DNA from: Amphiscolops sp. MND2022
Taxonomy: Eukaryota
Direction: 5' to 3'
Assembly: GCA_964187785.1 (NCBI GenBank)
Contig: OZ076409.1
Location: 65,598,001 to 65,662,000 of the forward strand
Length of the DNA: 64,000 bases
Shown here: positions 9,383 to 10,546 of the stretch, one piece after another
Layout of the letters: each line of letters opens with the position of its first letter
Position numbering within the stretch: position 1 is the stretch's first letter
Program-made: the position numbers and the translations under genes
The notes under the pieces: generated by a model
What the model was told of the DNA's origin: nothing
Database searches by the model: none
The model's input: the letters and a program-made list of their open reading frames with translations, nothing else

Positions 9383-10546
9383 ATGGAGCCATTAATGTAT
9401 GCAGCCATCCTGGAAATGGTCAAAAGCGGAGAAAAGGACGAACTGCTGACTGAAAAGGAAAATTTGATATGGACAGCCCGAATTAAGGAGTACAGTGTAC
9501 GCGCCGACGGAGGTCTGTTATGGAACGGGTTTAAGGTTCCAACCTTCGAACAGATCGAGCAGGTGTTGCAACCTGTACACATCACCAGCAAGGGGCATGT
9601 GAGAGACAGAAAGGTGTTGCAAAAAGAGTTGAGTGACCGCGGCTTTGCTCTACCAAGATATGAAGGTGGTCTAAAGCGAGCGTGCACGCTGTAAGTATGG
9701 CAAAACGACCTGAATGGCGACAAATAGTCGTTTTATGGAGTGAACGAACTGAGACTTCAATTGTTGTTTCGTTTATGTTTCTCCATAACTGTCCTGACTG
9801 TTTTTGGTCATACCACCAGGGGCATGAGTGGCAACAGGTCTCATGTGTAACAAAAGCTACTCGTGTACGAGTATGTGAAAAATTAGGTTTCACCCATGTG
9901 AAACTTCCAGACAATTACTTGGGAAGTAAATTTATAGGGCTGGGAGAACCGCCCGTGAAGAGTTGTAAATCAGTTCTAGCTGCAGGCCGAGGTGAATGCT
10001 GGTTTTTTTTTATTTTTTATTTGCTCGTTGGAAAAAAGAGCGGTAAGAATAGTGTCTTCTGATGAAAGCACGAAATGACTTTAATCACATGGCAATGATG
10101 ATGTTTGTAGATAAAAAACAGAATGCTAACGACTTGAAAAGGTTGCGAAAATCAATTTGTGAGACAATGAGAACGGAGGAATTCAACAAGTTGTGTGTGA
10201 CACCACTTGGGTATGCCCCATCGCCTTGGGAAATTGAAGCCACAAAAGCCTCGAAAATGGCAGTGGGAGAACCGTGGGTAAGTAAGTGTATGCCACGAAC
10301 AAACAGGAAAAAATGGGCATATACTGAAATGATGTGGATGAGTTTCAGATGTTGGCGACGGCAATGTACTTAAAGTGCGATCTGCTAGTGTTCTGACAAT
10401 ATGAAAGCGGCAGAGGCTGGATAAGATATTCAGCTGGTCAGACCGAGCGCTTCAATTGAGAGACCTTTTTGGTACAGTGTATGCACTCAGCAGTTTACAA
10501 GGCTTTTCACTGCGAGCCTCTCTGTCATTGGCCCCTTGAAACGTAA
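9383..10546 (+). CDS. Antisense spliced accessory gene: integrase-type HHCC zinc finger + OTU-like cysteine protease (disrupted in this copy)
   Basis: Exons ~9383-9690, ~9741/9777-10042, 10111-10277, ~10334/10349-10546 with GTAAGT/GTAAGA donors at 9691, 10043, 10278; 'PVH..GH...CPDC' zinc finger; OTU-like 'GECWF...YLLVG...LRKSICETM...W.DEFQMLATAMYLKCDLLVF...W.RY...FHCEP'; TGA stops at 10394 and 10457. Confidence 0.6.

Follow-up and report, generated by a model that had tools for sequence, protein, structure and literature searches.

The 64,000-nt window analysed here (Amphiscolops sp. MND2022, contig OZ076409.1, positions 65,598,001 to 65,662,000, forward strand) contains a Ty3/gypsy retrotransposon that carries, antisense between pol and env, an intron-split gene encoding an HHCC zinc domain followed by an OTU-like domain. 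Comparison of genomic copies makes it virtually certain that this is a real gene maintained under constraint. Its product very probably adopts an OTU-type fold, there is good reason to predict an active protease, and the gene probably derives from a transposase of the Ginger1 type whose DDE core was lost. The initial annotation of the sequence had proposed a hidden antisense, intron-containing HHCC and OTU-like gene without a DDE core, and profile comparisons together with the copy alignment now bear this out for a gene larger than was claimed.

The host element lies on the minus strand at 4741-18992, and its LTR pair, the flanking ACGCT target-site duplication (4736-4740 and 18993-18997) and the PR-RT-RH-IN order of its pol domains place it in Ty3/gypsy. 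The 5' LTR (18636..18992, minus strand) has TG...CA ends and is 99.4% identical over 349 nt to the 3' LTR (4741..5089, minus strand), from which the first 8 nt of the partner are absent. Gag-pol (11191..17801, minus strand) comprises gag, protease, a dUTPase-like domain, RT, RNase H, integrase and a long tail, with frameshifts and stops in this copy; Pfam placed RVT_1, RT_RNaseH and Integrase_H2C2 above cut-offs, with rve, protease and dUTPase matching weakly. A conserved env-like ORF (5666..7771, minus strand, one in-frame stop) has what looks like a basic cleavage site followed by a hydrophobic fusion peptide. It had no match in Pfam or PDB sequence searches and may, judging by these motifs, be F-type. 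Approximately 3.4 kb without a long sense ORF separate the integrase from the env-like ORF.

Most genes of the window copy are interrupted. Although just 2 differences were counted among 349 LTR sites, defects affect gag, pol, env and the antisense gene alike. Copying of a defective element in trans may account for this, as may LTR conversion or an assembly error. At about 10003-10019 this copy has a T run, where other copies have complex sequence. At the end of pol (11191-11560, minus strand) the integrase tail had no Pfam match; it may resemble a macro domain of the TARG1/OARD1 kind, and if so the element would have, beside the OTU gene, a further counter-defence domain of a kind found in viruses. 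Further long ORFs in the window, at 43740-47512 (minus strand) and 21817-23638 (plus strand), probably belong to other mobile elements.

Alignment of the genomic copies resolved the antisense gene, on the plus strand of the window, into five coding exons specifying 336 aa. Exon 1 (9383..9690) encodes the N-terminal region of a Ginger-type integrase, including both His of the HHCC set (codons 9578-9580 and 9596-9598), and exon 2 (9777..10042) supplies the CxxC (9790-9801), a linker, and the OTU Cys box with the predicted catalytic Cys (9997-9999). The helical part of the OTU domain follows in exon 3 (10111..10277), ending in an invariant EPW, and exon 4 (10349..10542) encodes beta strands, GW-RY, and the His box FHCEP (His 10508-10510, with Glu two residues on). 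Exon 5 (10609..10684) contributes a basic tail, which by resemblance may be a nuclear localisation signal, an invariant Trp and the stop codon. The Cys and His codons are those assigned in the initial annotation, and the extent given there for the gene holds as far as it went; intron 4 (10543..10608, phase 2) and exon 5 had been missed, such that there are five exons rather than four.

The three donors first proposed, GTAAGT at 9691, GTAAGA at 10043 and GTAAGT at 10278, were found in place, opening intron 1 (9691..9776, phase 2), the 68-nt GT-AG intron 2 (10043..10110), which is in phase 1, and the 71-nt intron 3 (10278..10348, phase 0). The acceptors of introns 1 and 3 had been considered ambiguous. 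For intron 1 this is so in the window copy, where the acceptor is broken, and the suggested comparison of copies located the AG in 22 of 23 others; intron 3 has a strong TTTCAG acceptor (10343-10348). That acceptor, in phase 0, places within intron 3 the "DEFQ" stretch that had been read as coding, and coding of DEFQ is thus ruled out; several copies have TAG there. A micro-exon within intron 3 was rejected after comparing copies. Also rejected was an overlapping sense-strand ORF: the opposite strand of the gene has no conserved frame and 8-25 stops per frame. Both of the TGA stops noted at the outset are in exon 4 of the window copy (10394-10396 and 10457-10459). A splice-acceptor-like TTTCAG was likewise verified upstream (9373..9378, plus strand), 4 nt before the start codon. 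Such a site within 18 nt of the ATG was present in 23/23 divergent copies, as against 33/552 background windows, and may represent the end of a 5' leader intron or a trans-splice site.

A DNA search of the same genome gave 26 matches of 64-100% identity. Of the 25 other copies, 23 were modelled together with the window copy, a partial duplicate and an overlapping locus being omitted, and exon boundaries were moved to the closest GT/AG no more than 3 nt away. Exon lengths of 308/266/167/194/76 nt recurred in 13 of 24 rows, with introns of about 57 to 92 nt. An open frame with GT-AG at each of the four introns was seen in 14 of 24 rows; in one row it depended on compensating frameshifts, leaving 13 clean. 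Changes are approximately 2-4 times as frequent at third codon positions as at first or second ones. Where dS can be estimated, open copies give a dN/dS of 0.05-0.17, and intron cores drop to about 45% identity in distant pairs. Searching with the exon-1 protein returned at least 112 matches. Greedy splice models were made for 23 divergent loci, with 11 kept and 12 dropped for stops or non-standard exon lengths. Across 18 open models, with a lowest identity of 41%, 61 columns are invariant, and these include H66, H72, C108, C111, C177, H301 and E303. The Cys box had been described as GRGECWF; the Cys stands in every open model, and the Arg proved private to the window copy, the box across copies being GGG[EKQD]CW.

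The position of the gene is fixed. Pol and env on the opposite strand flank it in 5 of 6 contexts, the sixth showing the pol end only; among weaker matches it is antisense between pol and env in 10/10, and 10/10 further pol-side stretches have gypsy pol on the opposite strand. Most copies thus have it as an antisense accessory ORF in the stretch from pol to the 3' LTR. At three loci (L004, L006 and L008) the alleles are mosaic, with the identity of introns and exons changing from one part of the gene to the next, a sign of recombination within the cassette.

The Pfam scan proposed for OTU and Integrase_H2C2 was made on single exons and intron read-throughs and gave neither match; intron 1 splits the H2C2 domain. 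In the 18 open models the H, H, C and C expected of H2C2 (PF17921) are invariant. The OTU family (PF02338) has a Cys at a helix start in a box G-x-C-[LWF]-F, and C177 (18/18 open models) aligns with DGNC with Asp replaced by Gly, while FHCEP, also in 18/18, aligns with HF[ED]. All OTU motifs line up with outside OTU relatives except the variable-loop motif W-[GAD]-[TS]-x-x-E, which occurs in 0/18 models as compared with 26/29 outside relatives, and the WGTEVEI-type match first suggested is therefore withdrawn. A PDB sequence search using an exon 2-4 profile returned no OTU and one unrelated match.

Exons 2-4 were modelled with the introns between them translated as well, which gave pLDDT 71.6 and pTM 0.76, with low confidence mainly at the N-terminus and in the two read-through introns. 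In the VIA comparison, ranks 1-34 of 44 were all taken by proteases of the OTU or another deubiquitinase type, the best with Z 9.6 and rmsd 3.1 over 130 aligned residues; closest in fold (Z 9-9.6) were OTUD1, OTUD3 and the OTUs of nairoviruses. Foldseek agreed with OTU at a best E of 2.8e-3, with no match at E <= 0.001. These matches favor an OTU fold, in a partly circular manner, since 32 of the 36 rows of the folded alignment come from other OTU families. A single-sequence model (pLDDT 36) was discarded, as was a mixed alignment (A3) that proved misaligned.

With respect to origin, both halves of the protein resemble Ginger-type transposases, as had been surmised. In profile comparison the N-terminus matched Ginger-type N-termini with a probability of 97%, versus 0.3% for the element's own integrase, and the C-terminus matched Ginger-type OTUs at 98% and Helitron-type OTUs at 95%. 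When the gypsy-family profile was compared with 154 proteins, preselected by the Bel/Pao profile described below, a 668-aa H2C2 + rve + OTU protein ranked first (E 3e-13; best reversed score E 0.12). Only about 60 residues separate the CxxC from the Cys box, with no DDE core or GPY/F in between, so the protein is not itself a Ginger1 member. In a tree of 52 OTU regions the gypsy family is on a long branch and is not placed with Ginger-type rows. A search of the genome for a Ginger donor gave 66 scored matches, all covering the integrase part only and filled by gypsy integrases, and located no donor element among them; a word-based homologue search with exon 1 in 8,000 longer proteins gave no scoring match, which is weak evidence. 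One other locus (L030) has an OTU domain within a 2,244-aa frame, which by its motifs looks like a Helitron.

A Pfam OTU search of the genome revealed a second form of the gene, free of introns, whose product of about 300 aa shares the domain layout; it scored 27.7 bits for OTU against a cut-off of 23.3 and, for H2C2, only E 0.1. It aligns end to end with the gypsy family (probability 95%, 242 columns), as compared with at most 2.6% in 30 shuffled controls. This homologue has 108 matches in the genome (L032-L035 and L056-L085 among the loci), and in 30/30 loci examined, two of which are halves of one copy, it is antisense directly behind a Bel/Pao pol and next to the 3' LTR. It is stop-free in 24 of the 30, has an acceptor before the ATG in most copies shown, and likewise was found to have no W-x-T-x-x-E motif. 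A PDB search with its profile matched OTUD1/3/5 in 4/4 cases (E 0.2-0.4). Among 1.84 billion representatives the profile found 263 proteins; most of the 32 scanned were OTU proteins, with both the Ginger1 type (H2C2 + rve + OTU) and the Helitron type among them. Gypsy and Bel/Pao forms each make up one clade in the OTU tree, and a joint clade (AU p 0.17) is neither rejected nor shown; the two may reflect either one capture or two. Short H2C2-OTU proteins without a DDE core also occur in other assemblies. On contig JAAUXW010022141.1 (L141) an H2C2-OTU gene of the Bel/Pao type was observed head to head with a partner, the ORFs being at 2-1354 (minus) and 1834-2757 (plus); no Bel/Pao pol was found on this contig, and the partner looks SET-domain-like by its motifs.

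Comparison of whole gypsy elements indicated that the gene is exchanged among them. One pair of elements shares 97% identity across 8,155 nt from the LTR through gag-pol and 96% across 3,552 nt from env to the LTR, with about 59% protein identity for the gene in between; a second comparison gave flanks of 96% and 93% with the gene at 58%, and a third gave 90% and 89% with the gene at 43%. Near-identical backbones with divergent genes between them imply that the cassette was swapped. Gene-tree distances correlated poorly with those of integrase (Spearman 0.19) and RT (0.09) and were four to six times longer, based on quick trees of 12 elements (11 for RT), with one context taken from a 99%-identical sister copy. 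A second antisense gene shares the cassette (8139..8450, plus strand, with an acceptor upstream), encoding 103 aa with a signal-peptide-like start, a Cys-rich part, a membrane helix and a basic tail. It is present in most related elements at 26-67% identity and diverges together with the OTU gene. Its product had no Pfam match, and its best atlas score of 0.84 is a lead only.

These observations bear on what the protein may do. In known OTU enzymes the W-x-T-x-x-E stretch grips the tail of ubiquitin, and its loss, together with GGGxC in place of DGNC, suggests that ubiquitin may not be the substrate. An OTU-fold protease acting on another target, such as Gag, Env or the small membrane protein of the element itself, or a factor of host defence that it would cleave directly, would account for catalytic residues being kept while W-x-T-x-x-E is lost in both gypsy and Bel/Pao forms, and the gene does share its cassette with that of the small membrane protein. 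However, the Bel/Pao copies inspected have no env or membrane gene between pol and LTR, and the gypsy element has an aspartic protease frame of its own (a weak match), and this reading is considered unlikely. Somewhat doubtful to a similar degree is a role in integration, in which the zinc domain would dock the protease on the integration complex, to shield integrase from ubiquitin-dependent degradation or steer insertion-site repair. The zinc domain is indeed integrase-type and invariant, the tail is basic, and a DNA-repair role was suggested for the OTU/Ulp1 domains of Ginger1 by Bao et al. (PMC2836005); yet the gene passes freely from one pol backbone to another, its tree departs from that of integrase, and a homologue serves a Bel/Pao integrase too, so that no specific partner fits.

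More remote still is competition among elements or cells, in which the two antisense genes would be paired for exclusion or in a poison-antidote-like manner. The two do travel together, and highly divergent alleles occur on backbones that are nearly identical, but there is no direct evidence for such a function and the Bel/Pao form seems to stand alone, making this very improbable. That the gene is a functionless relic of a Ginger insertion, passively carried, might be imagined from the broken window copy, which differs from a near copy by 27 amino-acid replacements, 19 silent substitutions and 2 stops, and is given almost no credence in view of the dN/dS of 0.05-0.17, the conserved splice sites, and catalytic residues that are invariant over 41-100% identity.

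The preferred reading, held at about even odds, is that this Ginger1-derived accessory HHCC-OTU gene serves in the nucleus to remove ubiquitin-like tags and thereby counters host restriction. A Ginger1-type transposase gene would have entered the element in reverse orientation and then lost its DDE core, and would be read from its own antisense transcript, with the acceptor just before the ATG. The packaged sense RNA would carry the introns backwards, and the introns of the gypsy form would persist because the sense RNA does not present them for splicing. Survival of introns through antisense orientation had been proposed at the outset, and, as that predicts, they are retained in all modelled copies; the Bel/Pao form, in contrast, is intronless. 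The basic tail would direct nuclear import and the zinc domain would target the enzyme to chromatin or the integration complex, where tags might be stripped from silencing factors, chromatin or element proteins. Fast-changing, swapped alleles would reflect conflict with the host, and it is such divergent, exchanged alleles that favor removal of ubiquitin-like tags; that the substrate in this counter-defence role is ubiquitin-like is credible at slightly under even odds. More tentatively, two unrelated LTR superfamilies of this one genome may carry a DNA-transposon-derived zinc-finger OTU protease antisense, as a deubiquitinase exchanged among backbones in the manner of an allele series, in an arms race against ubiquitin- or SUMO-based silencing.

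Several known systems share parts of this arrangement. Viral OTUs act in counter-defence by deubiquitination, and nairovirus vOTU, OTUD1 and OTUD3 are the top fold matches (Z 9-9.6, for a predicted model only); unlike the antisense gene product, these have no such zinc domain, and identity to them is 8-16%. OTU domains of Ginger1 and Helitron elements were already known (PMC2836005). Ginger1 transposases with a C-terminal OTU (Bao et al. 2010, PMC2836005) are alike in their H2C2 N-terminus, OTU C-terminus and GT-AG introns, whereas the present gene is a separate one inside an LTR element, without a DDE core, DGNC or W-x-T-x-x-E. Antisense ORFs of the plant LTR elements Grande, RIRE2 and Retand (PMC7264820) are also found between pol and the 3' LTR across copies. 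As described in the accessible text they have no clear similarity to known proteins or other elements, and the word "intron" is absent there (PMC7264820); the Amphiscolops gene differs in its four coding introns, recognisable enzyme fold, transposon-type source and animal-type, env-bearing host element.

Bdelloid rotifers provide a parallel for one accessory enzyme across unrelated retroelements of one genome, in the ORF3 enzymes of their LTR elements (PMC5408684), and dUTPase and env occur there in the same kind of element, as in the gypsy host (PMC5408684). The rotifer enzymes, unlike the gypsy gene, are DEDDy nucleases and GDSL esterases, and the text mentions neither OTU nor introns (PMC5408684). 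In Vandal Mutator-like elements, KAONASHI/VANC similarly places a ubiquitin-like-protease domain on an accessory gene, with a link to anti-silencing (PMC13317346); these are, however, plant DNA transposons with Ulp1, a domain of no assigned role there, rather than OTU (PMC13317346). Env-carrying metazoan Ty3/gypsy elements with gag-pol-env between LTRs in multiple young copies were surveyed (PMC13524379), and the main text of that survey does not mention OTU, antisense or dUTPase; its supplements could list the family (PMC13524379). No report of OTU genes in LTR elements was found in the literature covered, a scope that excludes Repbase and subscription journals.

In summary, the antisense accessory gene has a likely Ginger1-type source and a predicted active site that could be assayed, for a class of LTR-element ORFs that so far lacked origin and function. 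Annotation by ORFs alone misses such intron-split antisense genes, and the case shows how an element copied through RNA can keep a gene with four introns. An OTU domain kept after loss of the transposase core makes it testable why transposons carry OTU/Ulp1 proteases. The gene also opens to testing whether retrotransposons of animals, like viruses, encode enzymes for counter-defence.
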